This document shows positions 27,001 through 36,000 of a DNA stretch of 64,000 nucleotides, in pieces. How positions within the stretch are numbered: the first letter of the stretch is position 1; every line of letters begins with the position of its first letter. The DNA comes from Nitrospiraceae bacterium (GTDB taxonomy: Bacteria; Nitrospirota; Nitrospiria; Nitrospirales; UBA2166), in assembly GCA_002726235.1 (NCBI GenBank), contig PBSN01000007.1, positions 62,001 through 126,000 of the forward strand, given 5' to 3'. Position numbers: made by a program.

Positions 27001-30000
27001 TGTCGTCACTAGGAATTACTGCCGTTGGGGGACTGGTGCTTGGCGCGGTGCCGTTTTCAACTAGTCTTGCGATCGTTGCGCATCAGAGGAGTAGTGGGAA
27101 TGAGCATTGGCGCACTTTCATGGTTCGCAAAGAACCAAAAACATATGGACTTGGAAATCTCATTGAGGGAGATCTTCGTTCAGGCGATCAAGTATTGATT
27201 GTGGATGATGTATTGACCAGCGGAAAGTCTATTGGTTGTGCGATCGAATCCCTCATGCAGTCCGACCTCGATGTCTGTGTGAATCATGTGCTGGTCATTG
27301 TGGATCGTCAGGAGCAAAACGGACGTCAGCAGCTTGAACAACAGTATGGAGTCAAGAGCCACAGTATTCTGATGCTTGATGAGCTCAAAGCGGCTCAGAT
27401 TATGCTCAGGCCATGAGACTCTTTTGCACCTTAACAAGGTATGTTGCTGACCTTGAGAGGGAGGCGAAGCTTTTTGATGGCAGGGCCATGCCTAACTCAT
27501 GTCATTGGTAAAAATGACGGATTTCTTGACAATAAAAAGTGATCTTTAGTAGAGTGCGCAGCGTTTTTGGATCCCTTCATGGGACTTGCCTTCAGCGATC
27601 AACTCTACATCTCAAGCAGGGGTGGGTGGTCGATCGTTTTTTGCGGTCGGCGTGGTTCCCGTGGGGATGCTATGGGCAGGGTTTCGGGGTTTGGGAATCT
27701 AAAGCGATCGTTTTTTTGCAAGCCAGTTTTTCCTTACACATGGGAAGCATGTTTAGCTCTTTAGCTTAGTGGGGATGCTTGTTTGGATGTGTGTACGGGA
27801 AAAGGGGGTGGTGTGAGTGAAGGGAGCAGAAAGATTGTTTTCAAAGTTTGGCCAGTGATTCGATATCATCTCCTTGGGGCATTAGTTCTTGCCGGGGTTC
27901 TTCTTTTTTTCGGATTGCCCAATGCGGGCTTTAGTCTTCTCTTTGGCGCGGTCTTAGGCACCATCAACGCTGCGGTGATGGCGAAGCGGTTGGATGACTC
28001 CGTCGCGCTAGTTTCAGGAAAACAGAATTTATATCTATATGTTGGGATGGCTTCTCGGTTTTGTCTTGTTTTAGCGCTAATGGGAATGGGATTTTATTTC
28101 TTTCAACTTCATATAGTGAGCCTGCTCTCTGGTTTTCTTCTTTTCCAGATTATGTGCCTTTTTGTTCTTTGGAGAGAGGCTAGGGAACCAGTTCCTGAGA
28201 AAAGCATAAAGCACGGTTGCACCGTGAGTGTTCAGCACGAGGGATACTTAAAGAGATGACCGGAGAAAAACATGGTGTGGCCGAACATCTTGAGCATTCG
28301 GAGTGGGTGCCCCCGTTTCTCGGCTATGCCGTTCATCTTGATACTTTTTTGATGACCGGGATTGTCGTAGGGTTCTTGATCGTCATTCTCTTCTTGCTTA
28401 TGAGAAGCTTGCATGATGGTGCTCCAACTGGGCTTCAGAATTTCTTGGAGGTTGTTGTTGAATTTATCGAAGATCTCGTCAGGGAGAACCTCCCTGTCTA
28501 TGTTTCTTGGGTGACGCCTCTCGCTCTCACGCTTTTTATCTTTATTTTGTTGGGAAACTGGCTTGGTGAAATCCCTGGGATGCAATCTCCAACAGCCGAC
28601 ATTAACACGACGGTCAGTCTTGGTCTCATTTCTTTCACCTTACTACTGTATTTTAGCTTGAAGCATAAAGGACTTGGCTATTTTTCTGAGTTTTTATTCC
28701 ACCCGTTTGGCAAATGGTTCATTCCGGTCAATCTTTTTATGAAAGTTATCGAGGAAGTGGCAAAGCCAGCAAGCCTCTCCCTGCGGTTATTTGGCAATAT
28801 GTTTGCTGGGCATGTGGTGATTCTCTTAATTGCTTATATGATTCCTTGGTATTTGAATTGGGCTGTGGGGGTTGTATGGTTGGGTTGGCATCTGTTCGTT
28901 GGCCTTATCCAAGCTTTTGTCTTTACCATCCTAACCGTGGTGTATATCGCGATCGGACAGCAAAAAGAACACTAAATGATTCGTTAAGGCGATCAATTAG
29001 TCAATAAGGAGGGTGAATCGTGGAACCAGGAACAATTATCATCGCAGCAACGGCCGTTTCTATTGGTCTTATTCTCGGGGCCGCGGGGCTTGGCTCTGCC
29101 ATTGGGTGGGGACTGATTACTGCAAAAGCCCTCGAAGGAATTGCACGACAACCTGAAATGCGGCCGCAGCTTCTCTTTAATATGTTTATTTTTGCGGGAC
29201 TCATGGAGTCCTTCCCGTTTATTGTCATGGCCTTTGCTCTCTGGTTTCTCTTCGCCAATCCGTTTATGCTGCAATTGGCGGGATGAACACCATGAAATCG
29301 TAGGCAAACGCTAAGGACAAGAAAAGGCGAGGATAATTGTGGAACTGAATTTGACTGTTTTTGGGCAATGGATAACATTTTTCCTGCTCCTTTTTCTGCT
29401 GACAAAATTTCTCTATGCCCCTTTAAGCAGGGTGATGAAGAACAGGACAGCCAAAATCCAAGAGGGGTTAGATGCTGCTGAAAAAGCTCGTCACGATCTG
29501 GCAGAGGCTAAAGCATTCTATGAAGCTCAACAGGTGAAGGCTAAAACGGAAGCCCAGGAGATCATCCAAAAGGCCCAACATCGAGCCGGAGCGCTCAAGG
29601 AAGAGTTTGTTGCTCAAGCCAAAGAAGAATCCAACCGTATTATCCAGAAGGCGCGTGAAGATGTTCAGCTTGAATGGGAAAAAGCCCGGATGGAACTCAA
29701 GCGGGAAATGGCTGACATCATTTTCATTGCCACCGGAAAGGTTCTTGGGGAAACCATCGATCGGGATCGTCACATGGCGCTTGTCACGGATGTGGTTGAA
29801 AATGTAAAGGTCGACGGTGTCTGACCATAGAGCCACAAATCGATACGCTGATGCTATCTATCAGCTTGCTAAGGAAAAAGGGGAAGAATCGCTTTGGAAT
29901 GAAGAATTGGGTAAAGCTATGGCTGTTCTTCATTCAACAAAGGTTGTTCAGATTCTCTCGCATCCCAAACTTGATCTTTCCAAAAAATGGGATGTGCTTG

Positions 30001-33000: not shown

Positions 33001-36000
33001 TTGCTATGACGACCACCGATGGTTTGAAGCGGGAGATGAATGTAAAAGATACAGGAGCCCCGATACGCGTCATGGTTGGGAAAGAGACGTTGGGACGGAT
33101 GATGGATGTTCTGGGGAATCCCATTGACGGGAAAGGCGAGGTGGAAGGAAAGCAATCCTACTCTATTCATCGGCCAGCTCCAGAGTTTGATCAACTCGAG
33201 GCCGCCACTCAGGTTTTTGAAACAGGTATCAAAGTCATTGATCTCATTGCCCCATTTGCAAAGGGCGGAAAAACGGGACTTTTTGGTGGGGCGGGTGTTG
33301 GAAAAACTGTTTTGATTATGGAACTGATCAGAAATATTGCCAGTGAACACGGTGGATTTTCCGTCTTTGCTGGAGTCGGAGAACGGACTCGTGAGGGAAA
33401 TGACCTGTACCAGGAAATGTCTGAATCTGGAGTGCTTGATAAGACGACGCTGGTATATGGACAGATGAATGAACCTCCTGGGGTGCGTCTTCGGGTGGCT
33501 TTGACTGGGCTCACCATGGCCGAATATTTTAGAGACGAAGAAGGGAAAGACGTTCTTTTCTTCTTGGACAATATCTTTCGGTTCACCATGTCGGGAGCTG
33601 AAGTTTCCGCTCTTCTCGGAAGAATGCCATCCGCAGTGGGATACCAGCCAACATTGGCCGTTGAAATGGGCCAGCTTCAGGAAAGGATTACCTCTACTAA
33701 GAAGGGATCCATTACTTCAGTGCAGGCGGTTTACGTTCCTGCTGATGACCTGACAGACCCTGCTCCGGCCACAACATTTGCCCATTTGGATGCCACCGTG
33801 GTTCTTTCACGGCAGATTGCTGAATTGGGAATCTACCCGGCAGTCGATCCGTTAGATTCGACGTCCAGAATTCTCGATCCAAGGGTTCTCGGGAAGGAGC
33901 ACTACGACGTTACCCGTGGTGTACAGAAAATACTCCAACGGTATAAAGATCTTCAAGATATCATTGCCATTCTTGGAATGGATGAACTGAGTGAAGATGA
34001 TAAATTGACCGTATCTCGAGCCAGAAAAATCCAGAAGTTCCTGTCTCAACCTTTCTTTGTGGCGGAAGTTTTTACCGGGGCTTCTGGGAAATATGTTTCG
34101 CTCGCAGATACGGTAAAGGGGTTCAAAGGGATTATTGATGGAGAATATGACGCTCTTCCGGAACAGGCTTTTTATATGGTTGGGACGATCGATGAGGTAA
34201 TCGCGAAGGCCAAGGAAATGGAAGCTGCGTGATAAATGGCCACCATTAAATTAGATATCGTAACCGCTGAAAAACTTGTCCTCTCTGATGAGGCAGACTT
34301 TGTGGTTGCTCCGGGGATTATGGGAGAACTTGGAATCTTTCCCAAACACGCTCCCCTGCTGGCCACTTTGGATGTTGGGGAGGTTCGAGTGACAAAGGCA
34401 GAGGAGGTGTATTCTTTCTTTATTAGCGGCGGGTTCATTGAAATTCTTCCTGAACAGATAACAATCCTCGCGAATACGGCTGAGCGGGCGGAAGACATCG
34501 ATGAATCCAGAGCCAATGAAGCGCGAGATAGAGCCGAAATACTGATGGCTCAACAAGGAGATAATATCAGTTTTTCTCAGGCGGAAGATTCTCTTAAACG
34601 CGCAGCTGTGCGCCTAAAAGTTGTGCAAAAAAAGCGTGCGTCCCGTGGCGGTGGACTCGCCGGGACTTCTCTCGATGGTTGATTTCACGCTTAACACGAT
34701 GTGGAAATGCTTCTCTCCATCAGCCTCCTAGGAGATCGTCGATAGGGGTGAGCTGTGCTGGGGATGTTTCTTGGTGAGCTTTCCCAATGGGGGTTGCCTA
34801 AAAGCCATCCCTGATCTTGAGCGCGTCAAGGTCTGCAAGGCTGACTCCAATGCGTTTCGAGAAGATGGCGAAGCGTTTTTCACGTCTTCAGCCTAAGCCG
34901 CCTTTCGGTTGACGCATTCAACGAGGTTCCCAAGGCCAAGGGGAGTCACGCGTTGTGTCCGAATAACCTGCATGGTTGTTCCATCTAGTACGGCCTGAAG
35001 GCCTAGGTCGGTGCGAAACCCCAAGTGCCGGCACAAGGGGGAGGCCAATTTCTCAATTGAACCAATAAATTGGTTTCCGTTACTGAAGTGGTTGAGGAAT
35101 ACGATTCTGCCGCCTGGTCGGCAAACTCGAACCATTTCTTGGATAACGGTTTTGTGGTCTGGGACTGCAGTGATAACGTATGCAGCCATAACCGCGTCGA
35201 AGCTGTTGTCCGAGAACTGCATGTTCCCTGCGTCCATATTTTCGAGAGTCACATGACTGAGGGCATGTTTCTCAACTTGCAGATGGCTGTGCTCTAGCAT
35301 CTCATTGCTCACGTCAATAGCAGTGATCGCGCAGTCTTTTCGATAGTGCGGAAGTGAAATGCCTGTCCCGACTCCGACTTCGAGAATGCGTTCGGCGCTT
35401 TGTGCATCAAGCCACCTTACCGCAATTAGACGTGGTTCATTAAAGAGTTTTCCGAAGGTGACGTCGTAAAGGTGAGCATATCTGGAATATGCACGCTCGA
35501 CTTGTGTAATGCTAAGGTAGGGGGCTGATATTTTCGACAAGTTCGTTACCATGAAGAGAGTTGTATTTCTCGAATGCAACCATTGTGCAAGGCCGCCGCA
35601 ATCTACCCAAGCACAGACGAAAAGTCAACAATTACTGTAGTTGTCATGGCGCTGTTTTGCTCACCAAACGATGATGCTCTGCAGCCTCTTGACAAATCAA
35701 GAGAGCGGTGCATACGATTCGCCGATGATAAGCGATTCACACGTTAGCAGCCTACAGACCATGGCCGATGTCTGGGATTGTTATCACTGGGATCTTGCTG
35801 CAGTCGAGGATCAAATTCTCTCCAACATTGGCTCTGATGTGCCTCTTGTTAGGGAAATAGCAACGTTCGTTCTCCAGGGGGAGGGTAAGCGAGTTCGGCC
35901 GCTCCTGTTGCTTCTGTCCGCTCGCCTGTGTGGCTGTCAAGGTCATGAGATGCATGCCCTCGCCAGTTTTGTCGAATATATCCATACCGCAACGTTGTTG

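Follow-up and report, generated by a model that had tools for sequence, protein, structure and literature searches.

Gene content of the atp locus

The window analysed, a 64,000-nucleotide stretch of a Nitrospiraceae genome (G000; 1.87 Mb, 27 contigs, 90.65% complete), carries a complete set of ATP synthase genes between pyrE and a methyltransferase gene, as listed in Table 1. The locus was compared with four congeners (G004, G016, G012 and G008) and with a metagenome contig, L163. Nine consecutive open reading frames on the forward strand (27783-34682) make up an intact atpI-B-E-F-H-A-G-D-C operon, labelled foreign here on grounds given below. The genes are contiguous, co-oriented and in canonical order, with gaps or overlaps of -43 to +53 nt. 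Each of the nine scores above the curated Pfam cut-off for its expected family (ATP-synt_I, A, C, B, OSCP, alpha, gamma, beta and epsilon), and all eight structural subunits of an F-type enzyme (a, c, b, delta, alpha, gamma, beta and epsilon), as well as AtpI, pass the gathering scores. The general NCBIfam equivalogs TIGR01131, TIGR01260, TIGR01144, TIGR01145 and TIGR01216 are likewise above cut-off for operon proteins. The contiguous nine-gene operon described by the survey therefore stands; its start at 27813 lies in the same atpI frame but at a later start codon, the reading frame opening at 27783. The true start of atpB is probably near 28253. An F1Fo enzyme is expected to have P-loops in alpha and beta, a DELSEED-type loop, a stator arginine in a and a carboxylate in helix 2 of c; all of these are found (Table 1), the carboxylate being the E of GLMESF. 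Foreign epsilon is 148 aa long, compared with 93 and 98 aa for native epsilon in G004 and G016.

Table 1. Features of the atp locus (positions in the window)
Feature	Position	Strand	Evidence
pyrE, orotate phosphoribosyltransferase, conserved left neighbour	26823..27416	+	NCBIfam TIGR00336, 130.6 bits vs cut-off 106.8
Putative native promoter and leader start of ancestral atpHAGDC, retained	27504..27591	+	88-nt alignment with G004
Predicted sigma-70-like promoter, TTGACA-18-TAGAGT	27526..27555	+	10/12 match; hexamers conserved
atpI (foreign)	27783..28259	+	PF03899, 44.8 bits vs cut-off 25.1
atpB, subunit a (foreign)	28217..28975	+	PF00119, 186 bits; RLFGN arginine motif at residue 190
atpE, subunit c (foreign)	29020..29286	+	PF00137, 48.7 bits; carboxylate within GLMESFPFI (alignment)
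atpF, subunit b (foreign)	29339..29824	+	PF00430, 103 bits
atpH, subunit delta (foreign)	29817..30362	+	PF00213, 139 bits; 24% to G004 delta
atpA, alpha (foreign)	30413..31921	+	PF00006, PF00306, PF02874; GDRQTGKT motif
atpG, gamma (foreign)	31930..32784	+	PF00231, 333 bits
atpD, beta (foreign)	32832..34232	+	PF00006, PF02874; GGAGVGKT and DELS motifs
atpC, epsilon (foreign), full length with C-terminal helices	34236..34682	+	PF02823, PF00401
3' spacer, atpC to convergent methyltransferase	34683..34892		210 bp
SAM-dependent methyltransferase, conserved right neighbour	34893..35579	-	PF08241

Profile searches of the whole genome can also reveal whether a second enzyme is present. Subunits a (PF00119) and c (PF00137) gave one match each. 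Of three matches to PF00006, two are alpha and beta and the third, 422 aa long, is assigned to Rho by NCBIfam (698 bits); V-ATPase subunit I (PF01496) had no match anywhere in the genome. In this 90.65%-complete genome the foreign operon encodes the one ATP synthase found, as the survey had claimed, and the only rotary ATPase found. The four congeners each have exactly one a and one c gene, and no genome carrying both enzyme types was found among the five of the genus.

The sequences indicate that the enzyme is most likely a proton-coupled ATP synthase. Na+ coupling in F-type enzymes depends on a ligand set in subunit c consisting of Q/E32, E65, S/T66, T67 and Y70 (Ilyobacter numbering). Read by eye from the alignment, the full set is missing in the foreign subunit, which has W at the Q/E32 position of helix 1 (GWG) and E-S-F-P-F-I in helix 2, without T67 and Y70; a Na+-coupled F-ATPase is accordingly unlikely. 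Nor is the set complete in the native c subunit of G004, where position 32 is I and the corresponding residues are E-T-I-A-L-Y. The ligands are named in part in the relevant passages of PMC12342949.

Phylogenetic placement of the operon

Subunit identities split the genus in two. With gamma as query, G012 and G008 match at 96% and 89% but G004 and G016 at 39% and 38%, and of the 117 genomes of the order with a match (121 searched) none besides G012 and G008 exceeds 42%, which reproduces the split reported by the survey. The best match across 251 Nitrospirota genomes is at most 48%, compared with 52-57% to Gamma- and Zetaproteobacteria. Native subunits track taxonomy, since their identities are graded by relatedness: G004 alpha shares 74-76% identity with other families in the order, 71-72% with other classes and 65% with G000, and for G004 gamma the corresponding values are 62-65%, 50-56% and 38%.

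Searching for a donor gave different best matches for different subunits. Subunit c matches two Zetaproteobacteria at 83-84% and one gammaproteobacterial MAG at 81%; the 90% to Zetaproteobacteria given by the survey was not matched in our set. Across 80 proteobacterial loci, identity is at most 43% for a, 39% for b and 35% for delta, and 58-65% for alpha. The closest outside relatives are metagenome fragments (alpha 80%, gamma 72%, a 57-67%). Beyond these, a reaches 50% to a MAG (Proteobacteria at most 50%), gamma at most 57% and alpha at most 72%, the best alpha matches being Chloroflexota and Carboxydothermus rather than Proteobacteria. AtpF is at most 39% identical to any locus outside the foreign clade, and AtpI, at 78% to G012 and 60% to G008, is at most 34% identical to any other locus.

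Trees were sampled from Nitrospirota, Gamma-, Beta- and Zetaproteobacteria, a few Chloroflexota and Firmicutes alphas and metagenome loci. The concatenated alpha, gamma and beta tree (62 rows, 1254 columns) recovers Nitrospirota as a clade at 100*, with G004 within the order; the foreign clade (100*) lies inside a 99* set with Zeta-, Gamma- and Betaproteobacteria and one metagenome trio. The gamma, beta and subunit a trees agree with the concatenate, foreign beta falling in a 97* set with Pseudomonadota; in the alpha-only tree the foreign clade sits on the central branch. The approximately unbiased (AU) test rejects a clade of the foreign rows with G004 (delta lnL 394, p 2.7e-50) and with the 22 native Nitrospirota rows (delta lnL 148, p 1.9e-5). 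The phylogeny of the operon thus conflicts with that of the organism, and the survey was right that the operon is not of Nitrospirales type. These placements put the donor lineage outside Nitrospirota, with an enzyme that is akin to those of Zeta-, Gamma- and Betaproteobacteria but branches outside them. A deep, unsampled lineage, and not a mosaic, accounts for the differing best matches, because the trees of beta, gamma and a, like the concatenate, all put the operon next to Proteobacteria. In composition the operon stands out only weakly: GC3 is 0.435 against 0.493 +/- 0.054, and the codon-usage distance of the operon is reached by 3.4% of random gene sets.

The shared site, the leader and the second locus

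The operon occupies the same site as the native F1 cluster of its relatives. In G004, tblastn gave the order trpD-like, DUF420, radical-SAM and pyrE, followed by a Nitrospirales-type atpH-A-G-D-C cluster whose delta, alpha, gamma, beta and epsilon are 24, 65, 38, 71 and 36% identical to the foreign subunits. To its right, from the methyltransferase and a polyprenyl synthase to a bd-like oxidase, identities are 60-92%. The 4.3-kb contig of G016 also has native atpH-A-G-D-C, with only the right-hand neighbours visible. Relatives thus have the ancestral type flanked by the very genes that border the operon here, and the neighbours on both sides are common to G004, G012, G008 and L163. For instance, pyrE (68% identical to G004, 84% to G012 and 80% to G008) adjoins the atp cluster at the same position in each, and the methyltransferase (81% to G004, 82% to G012 and 76% to G016) adjoins atpC in all. 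The spacer between atpC and the methyltransferase is 206 bp in G012, 109 bp in L163 and 15 bp in G004; in that of G000, tblastn found no relic of a native F1 gene (E >= 0.37) and no terminator-like site was called. No mobile-element gene, nearby tRNA or convincing flanking repeat was found around the operon. The survey's claim of an identical site is borne out by synteny on both sides in G004 and on the right in G016, and by a shared promoter block.

This block, an addition of the present analysis, aligns locally over 88 nt with the pyrE-atpH spacer of G004 (score 36, reached by none of 1000 shuffles, maximum 19) and is also found in G012, G008 and L163. Similarity to the G004 spacer fades about 30 nt past the -10 hexamer. 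TTGACA-18-TAGAGT is among the two best promoter-like sites in 27300-35000 and the only one of them on the forward strand, and both hexamers are conserved in G000, G012, G008 and G004. The putative native promoter, with some 30 nt of leader, has been retained upstream of foreign atpI, and the operon may be transcribed from this promoter. Identical atpA contigs or pieces occur in two RNA libraries, although presence in such libraries is not proof of transcription.

Native Fo genes are encoded at a second locus. In G004 and G016 the order there is topA-AtpZ-a-c-b-larE, compared with topA-AtpZ-larE and a spacer of 24-40 bp in G000, G012 and G008. As a-c-b adjoins larE in four of the five genomes examined from three further families of the order, its absence here is derived, that is, a deletion. 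As far as its 90.65%-complete genome extends, the recipient lacks the ancestral genes, and the survey's deletion of atpB-E-F holds for all three carriers of the foreign operon. The gene left behind, which the survey called an atpI-like remnant, belongs instead to the AtpZ family (PF09527, E 1e-13; 51.5 bits vs cut-off 26.6). Its reading frame is intact in all five genomes of the genus, and dN/dS is 0.2-0.27 among the three without native Fo. A further addition here, then, is that the orphan AtpZ is an intact, functional gene under purifying selection.

Probable replacement of the enzyme, other histories and known systems

The best explanation, to which we assign a probability of about 0.86, is a xenologous replacement in situ of the whole F1Fo ATP synthase, through a single acquisition in an ancestor of G000, G012 and G008. 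A complete atpIBEFHAGDC operon would have arrived from a lineage outside Nitrospirota and inserted into the 5' leader of native atpHAGDC, downstream of the native promoter. With the foreign enzyme expressed from the resident promoter, native F1 and the atpB-E-F genes at the second site would have become redundant and been deleted; AtpZ would have persisted for a separate role. We infer the order of these steps and their single origin. The lateral swap within one genus proposed by the survey is supported by the site, the promoter, the trees and the deletion. That the genus gained the operon only once is likely, on weak support: the three carriers form a clade at no more than 76/70 in the RpoB+RpoC tree and no clade in the larE tree.

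Alternatively, an ancestor of the genus or family may have held both enzymes over a long period, of which G000, G012 and G008 kept the foreign one and G004 and G016 the native one; the operon would then be an old resident and not a replacement on a single internal branch. The species tree of the genus is near a polytomy, so the branch of gain is not fixed, the strong divergence of the operon from all sampled relatives fits an old acquisition, and some phase of coexistence is needed under any scenario. This history is nevertheless improbable: two a or two c genes occur in none of the five genus genomes, no further G000-type gamma was found in the 121 genomes of the order and 251 of the phylum searched, and the promoter-atpH junction of G004 is uninterrupted with no insertion trace, a precise 7-kb loss in two lineages being less parsimonious than no insertion. 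Less likely still is that, after a single acquisition, the operon passed from species to species within the genus by homologous recombination through the conserved flanks, in which case carriers need not be a clade. Their weak monophyly would suit such a spread, as would the 96-97% identity of alpha, gamma and beta between G000 and G012, where ten flanking proteins average 82.7%. However, dS between these two genomes is similar for the operon (0.31-0.64) and the flanks (0.43-1.0), as it should be if the operon diverged together with the genome, and the high protein identity is therefore due to constraint (dN/dS 0.03-0.2 for operon genes) and not to recent transfer. The operon tree places the G008 type basal to G000 and G012, as in the RpoBC topology, and the Fo deletion, at an unlinked site, has the same distribution.

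Two further readings have very little probability. In one, the native genes diverged very fast in situ and atpB-E-F moved to the F1 site, which would account for the shared site and promoter and for the lack of a known donor. Under the model used, the AU test rejects it, and against it also stand the short end branches of the foreign clade (0.014-0.09), the low dN/dS and the presence of atpI, which is absent from native sets. G000 alpha is also about 70-72% identical to Chloroflexota, Firmicutes and an ancestral-core construct but 65% to its congener, a pattern not expected of fast divergence. In the other, equally remote, Nitrospirales DNA was fused during assembly or binning with a contig or stretch from a different organism. 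The assembly is metagenome-style, in 27 contigs, and one database record of a 90%-cluster member bears a different phylum label; yet contigs of 41.5 kb (G012), 12 kb (G008) and 54 kb (L163) repeat these junctions, the operon is directly preceded by the native promoter and the unlinked Fo deletion is concordant. Mismatch-free contigs from a run of another study, added here, bridge 27452-27971 and 34435-35600, across both junctions, and a chimeric bin was considered and excluded.

Whole-enzyme replacement, the preferred reading, has its closest precedent in Thaumarchaeota, for which horizontal operon transfer and in situ displacement of atp operons are described (Wang et al. 2019, PMC6863869); events of this kind are therefore not new. 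As that account has it, A-type and V-type-like enzymes were exchanged, with donor and recipients in one phylum and some species holding both, and an adaptive link to pH and pressure was experimentally supported; any adaptive value in the present case would be inferred. A whole ATPase operon was exchanged among near relatives in both systems, and the ATPase phylogeny disagrees with that of the species. Compared with the archaeal cases as described there, the recipient here is a bacterium, F-type replaces F-type with a donor outside the phylum, native genes at two loci were both cleared, the putative native promoter was kept and no dual carrier is known. Bacteria have also acquired A/V-type ATPases laterally, some phyla being without the F-type (Hilario and Gogarten 1993; Mahendrarajah et al. 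2023, PMC10656485). An entire rotary ATPase was gained laterally there too, but between enzyme classes and at deep taxonomic levels, and the relevant passages of PMC10656485 do not describe a shared site or promoter retention. The present locus suggests that an essential machine of eight subunits can be exchanged whole, at the old site and behind the old promoter, on a branch of a marine Nitrospirales genus.

In order and content the operon is identical to the canonical proteobacterial atpIBEFHAGDC (E. coli type), and gamma, beta and a branch beside Zeta-, Gamma- and Betaproteobacteria; unlike that operon, it is nested in no sampled proteobacterial group. The N-ATPase, a laterally transferred Na+ F-type variant, has been reported in Nitrospirales (Dibrova et al. 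2010, cited in PMC12342949 and PMC10656485) and resembles the present case as a laterally moving F-type operon in that order. As outlined in those two sources, it is an extra enzyme beside the housekeeping one, with the order atpDCQRBEFAG, AtpQ and AtpR and no delta, whereas here delta is present, the order is canonical and the enzyme is the only one. An N-ATPase identity was rejected also on the 'alternate F1F0' NCBIfam models, on which the scores lie far under the cut-offs (83.8 vs 302 for a, 36.7 vs 131 for c and 68.5 vs 225 for b).

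Operon content and the exchange site

All nine co-oriented ORFs of the operon (atpI-B-E-F-H-A-G-D-C) pass the curated Pfam cut-offs for AtpI, a, c, b, delta, alpha, gamma, beta and epsilon, respectively, and five of these proteins (a, c, b, delta and epsilon) likewise exceed the cut-offs of the general NCBIfam equivalogs; the operon proteins fall far under those of the NCBIfam models for the 'alternate F1F0' enzyme (N-ATPase). The expected catalytic and coupling motifs are all found: alpha and beta each have their P-loop, beta also has its DELS loop, subunit a has the arginine in RLFGN, and c has a glutamate in helix 2. 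The genes look functional, since dN/dS between the genome of the window (G000) and its congener G012 is 0.03 to 0.2. In the G000 assembly (1.87 Mb, 27 contigs, 90.65% complete), the operon is the sole ATP synthase detected. PF00119 and PF00137 have one match each, PF00006 matches alpha, beta and a protein identified as Rho by NCBIfam, and PF01496 (V-type subunit I) has no match in G000 and is found in 8 of 14 control genomes. The four congeners of G000 likewise have exactly one a and one c apiece.

The congeners can be divided by their gamma subunit, as the survey's finding had it. G000 gamma matches 117 of the 121 genomes of the order, with identities of 96% in G012 and 89% in G008 versus 39% in G004 and 38% in G016, and no genome besides G012 and G008 exceeds 42%. 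Synteny was assessed by tblastn of 20 window proteins against fetched congener loci. In G004, one flank consists of the trpD-like, DUF420, radical-SAM and pyrE genes (68–71% identity) and the other of a methyltransferase, a polyprenyl synthase, two small proteins, a cytochrome c and a bd-like oxidase (60–92%); between them stand only delta-alpha-gamma-beta-epsilon, at 24/65/38/71/36% identity to G000. The G016 locus, a 4.3-kb contig, has a right-hand side that matches that of G004, and the nine-gene operon lies between the same neighbours in G012, G008 and the metagenome contig L163. The native F1 genes of G004 and the foreign operon of G000 therefore share one site, as claimed.

The junctions bear on how the operon was installed. 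An 88-nt block around a sigma-70-like site aligns with the pyrE-atpH spacer of G004 with a score of 36, a value reached by 0 of 1000 shuffles (shuffle maximum 19), and is also found 5' of the operon in G012, G008 and L163. Similarity between the G000 and G004 leaders stops about 30 nt past the -10 hexamer, which places the left junction within the 5' leader. The promoter of the displaced native genes is thus retained, and the foreign operon is probably transcribed from it. On the other side, the gap between atpC and the convergent methyltransferase gene is 109 to 210 bp and its sequence unassignable; in G004 the gap is 15 bp. Native F1 relics were not found in the two junction spacers by tblastn of five G004 proteins (best E 0.37), an integrase-like family was not seen among the 20 ORFs scanned, and the nearest tRNA is more than 10 kb away. 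Of the two copies of an imperfect direct repeat of 21 nt, one lies within the native -10/leader and the other just before the methyltransferase stop; the repeat is too short to separate from chance, may be a chance occurrence and was left unused. A 76-aa ORF, orf76, lies across part of the promoter and leader and gave no Pfam match at E values up to 1; it was therefore left out of the gene count and is most likely not a gene. Plasmid origin was also discarded as a candidate: gamma matches 63 plasmid records, all below 60% (best 49.8%).

A chimeric bin could in principle produce such an arrangement, a worry raised with the original observation. However, the arrangement is shared by three genomes at species level and, independently, by a 54-kb metagenome contig, and contigs from run X3, which belongs to a different study than the possible source run, bridge both junctions without mismatch. 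Six further runs from five studies (possible source run excluded), labelled marine, marine plankton or hydrothermal-vent metagenome, also contain half or more of the words sampled from the operon region; runs with a small share were left out of this habitat reading. Mismatch-free pieces in atpI/atpB, atpA, atpG and atpD come from two RNA libraries of two studies (six pieces in run X18, and run X19). These fit expression of the operon and are not proof of it, because DNA can occur in such libraries; parts of the operon without such contigs are uninformative.

Features of the window and of congener loci discussed in the text
Feature	Location	Strand	Details
Foreign ATP synthase operon	window 27783-34682	+	nine ORFs
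Sigma-70-like site	window 27526-27555		TTGACA-18-TAGAGT; pyrE-atpI spacer; 10/12 match, among two best in region
Promoter block	window 27504-27591		88 nt
orf76	window 27539-27769		overlaps promoter and leader
Imperfect direct repeat	window 27548-27568 / 34860-34880		17/21 nt; brackets operon
Region of sampled words	window 27300-35000
X3 contig, left junction	window 27452-27971		promoter into atpI
X3 contig, right junction	window 34435-35600		atpC into methyltransferase
X19 RNA-library piece	window 30514-31056
Cytochrome c and bd-like oxidase subunit I homologue	window 38058-40486		downstream; oxidase 588 aa
tRNA, ribosomal-protein-size and RNA polymerase region	window 45455-58831
rpoB	window 50667-54677
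rpoC	window 54674-58831
Radical-SAM to DUF420 interval	L018 (G004) 14616-15367		~750 bp; ~80 bp in G000
Native epsilon	L018 (G004) 8212-8493	minus	beta-sandwich alone
Native epsilon	L021 (G016) 1183-1479	minus	beta-sandwich alone
atp genes of the metagenome trio	L164, L169, L173 ~7700-14300

Ancestry and history of the operon

Native subunits track taxonomy. G004 alpha is 74–76% identical to that of other families of the order and 71–72% to other classes of the phylum, but only 65% to its congener G000; G004 gamma is likewise 62–65% identical to other families, 50–56% to other classes and 38% to G000. Alpha, gamma and beta were concatenated (62 rows, 1254 columns) and analyzed with IQ-TREE under LG+C20 PMSF with SH-aLRT support only; the trees are without most bacterial phyla and their support values come from quick searches. 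In the concatenated tree, Nitrospirota form a clade (100) with G004 inside its order, and G000, G012 and L163 (100) fall into a set (99) with Zeta-, Gamma- and Betaproteobacteria (100) and a trio of metagenome loci, as a three-way split. The foreign clade is sister to the proteobacterial group in the gamma tree (87) and shares a set with it in the beta tree (97). For subunit a, the G000 type and four metagenome fragments form a clade (99) that is sister (85) to a proteobacterial assemblage, and with alpha alone the foreign clade sits on the central branch between Proteobacteria and Chloroflexota, Firmicutes and Nitrospirota. AU tests, with groups chosen after the first tree had been seen and LG+G4 as the only model, reject both grouping the foreign rows with G004 (delta lnL 394, p 2.7e-50) and grouping them with the tree's 22 native Nitrospirota rows (delta lnL 148, p 1.9e-5). 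Trees and tests thus place the operon outside Nitrospirota, in agreement with the claim that it is not of Nitrospirales type. A donor within Nitrospirota was considered and dropped, the best gamma match among 251 genomes being 48%; composition deviates weakly and was left out of the transfer evidence.

Best hits had been said to differ between subunits, and this is seen again. Among the matches listed, alpha has hits in Dehalococcoidia, Anaerolineae and Carboxydothermus (about 70%) and to an ancestral-core construct (72%), and gamma is 52–57% identical to Gamma/Zetaproteobacteria; the c subunit is 83–84% identical to Zetaproteobacteria. A mosaic operon would give such a pattern, but given the tree positions the unlike best hits point to depth instead. 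Outside the clade, the nearest sequences among the matches listed are fragments from metagenome contigs no longer than 5.7 kb, at 80% for alpha (P0124, P0125), 72% for gamma (P0004) and 57–67% for subunit a (P0244–P0247), and the nearest taxon-labelled subunit a (50%) belongs to a MAG labelled Alphaproteobacteria/Proteobacteria bacterium. These fragments may represent the donor lineage or further recipients. A metagenome scan with alpha lists L163 (90%), L186 (a 2-kb identical piece) and at least 78 loci at 62–70%, with the 80% lineage not among the matches listed; the genome-contig scan lists 600 matches, and closer genomes are possible beyond those.

The L164, L169 and L173 trio, whose alpha, gamma and beta lie beside the foreign clade and Proteobacteria, has a subunit a that groups with the native Nitrospirales-type a of G004 (100), and may be another ATP synthase of mixed ancestry. 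In family f13 of another Nitrospirota class (G137, G204, G209, G216 and others; L243–L251), gamma is 45–48% identical to G000 and only 40–44% to G004, so that heterogeneity of gamma in the phylum is not confined to the present case. Within the P0123 cluster (alpha, 90% to the window), P0367 is labelled in public records both 'Candidatus Marinimicrobia bacterium' and 'Nitrospirales bacterium', probably because of a mis-binned contig.

The number of gains can be approached through the species tree. Ten flanking proteins (about 2800 aa) are 78–83% identical among G000, G012 and L163 and 73–75.5% to G004. With five outgroups, a rooted tree of RpoB+RpoC (2702 columns) recovers the genus and G000+G012 (both 100/100), the three carriers as a clade at only 76/70 and the two native-type genomes at 78/76; larE alone, also tried as a species marker, leaves the genus a polytomy. 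In the operon tree, the G008 type is basal to G000+G012, and operon dS is 0.31 to 0.64 where flank dS is 0.43 to 1.0. One gain followed by vertical descent would fit, because the operon tree, the common Fo deletion and the flank-like dS all agree with it.

The second site and AtpZ

In G004 and G016, the native Fo locus reads topA-AtpZ-a-c-b, convergent with larE, while in G000, G012 and G008 it reads topA-AtpZ-larE with an AtpZ-larE spacing of 24 to 40 bp. In four of five genomes, drawn from three further families of the order, the a-c-b genes lie directly beside larE; this is therefore the ancestral arrangement and its absence from the three carriers a deletion, as originally proposed. The gene left behind had been called an atpI-like remnant, a label that needs correction: it matches PF09527 (AtpZ/ATPase_gene1) with 51.5 bits versus a cut-off of 26.6 and is an intact ORF in all five genus genomes. 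Its conserved 58-codon core has a dN/dS of 0.20 to 0.27 among the three genomes without native Fo. A role independent of Fo would explain this retention; AtpZ of Bacillus pseudofirmus is reported, in the sections available of PMC4453477, to aid Mg2+ acquisition. A candidate relic of the first codons of native atpB in the 24-bp spacer was rejected, its score being equalled by 539 of 1000 shuffles.

Function and possible significance

The foreign enzyme is probably a normal ATP synthase that is proton-coupled, judging by its c subunit. Helix 1 has W at the position of Q/E in Na+ enzymes, and helix 2 reads E-S-F-P-F-I, without their T and Y ligands; this ligand motif is given in part in PMC12342949. 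Compared with the native enzyme of G004 and G016, the foreign one has different c and a subunits and an AtpI. Its epsilon is full-length (148 aa), versus 93 and 98 aa in G004 and G016, which are without the C-terminal helices; in 16 other genomes of the order, epsilon has 138 to 166 aa. It seems that the regulatory C-terminal helices were lost from the ancestral enzyme of the genus.

Since sister species preserve the 'before' state at both loci, the steps can be reconstructed. All eight subunits and AtpI would have arrived as one block and integrated into the leader, behind the resident promoter; the native F1 genes would have been lost at the first site and the native Fo genes deleted at the second, with AtpZ retained. 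That this exchange was an adaptive bioenergetic retuning and not a neutral replacement is unlikely, with a probability of about one in four. If true, a branch of a vent-/deep-sea-associated, non-nitrifying Nitrospirales genus gained the type of rotor and stator found in co-occurring iron-/sulfur-oxidising Proteobacteria (c is 81–84% identical to Zetaproteobacteria and one gammaproteobacterial MAG), and its C-terminally truncated native epsilon gave way to a full-length regulatory one. The ion-to-ATP ratio, or control of reverse (hydrolytic) operation, would have changed, as in the proposal for the Thaumarchaeota ATPase swap, and the retained promoter and AtpZ would illustrate how host regulation and assembly accommodate a foreign machine of eight subunits.

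In essential, highly expressed machines of many subunits the parts are co-adapted, and such machines would therefore be expected to withstand lateral replacement. The operon is a clean natural bacterial case of whole-machine replacement, offering two close backgrounds in which to compare enzymes differing in c, a and epsilon regulation. It also makes ATP synthase genes unsafe phylogenetic markers for the UBA2166 family, which is uncultured and little studied. The consulted parts of PMC12342949 describe the family as basal, marine and non-nitrite-oxidising and a canonical F1Fo enzyme as encoded in almost all Nitrospirales, and make no mention of ATP synthase replacement; a search for further literature using the term 'UBA2166' found none. 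The kind of event is already known. In situ displacement of the atp operon is described for Thaumarchaeota in the available text of Wang et al. (PMC6863869), and N-ATPases and bacterial A/V-ATPases are, according to excerpts of PMC10656485, also laterally moved rotary ATPases. Nothing specific was found in the literature on F-type operon replacement or displacement in bacteria, and the present case extends Thaumarchaeota-style displacement to the bacterial F-type enzyme. Particular here are the F-for-F exchange in a bacterium with a donor outside the phylum, the gathering of genes from two loci into one operon, the retention of the native promoter, and an AtpZ that is orphaned yet conserved.

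Elsewhere in the window, no flank protein is more conserved across the genus than the bd-like oxidase (90–94%). Further on lies a standard cluster of tRNA-Thr, Tyr, Gly and Thr, a 396-aa ORF (putative tuf, by position), tRNA-Trp, ORFs of ribosomal-protein size, rpoB and rpoC; the last two are the large ORFs used for the species tree, and the other names in this region come from position and size only.
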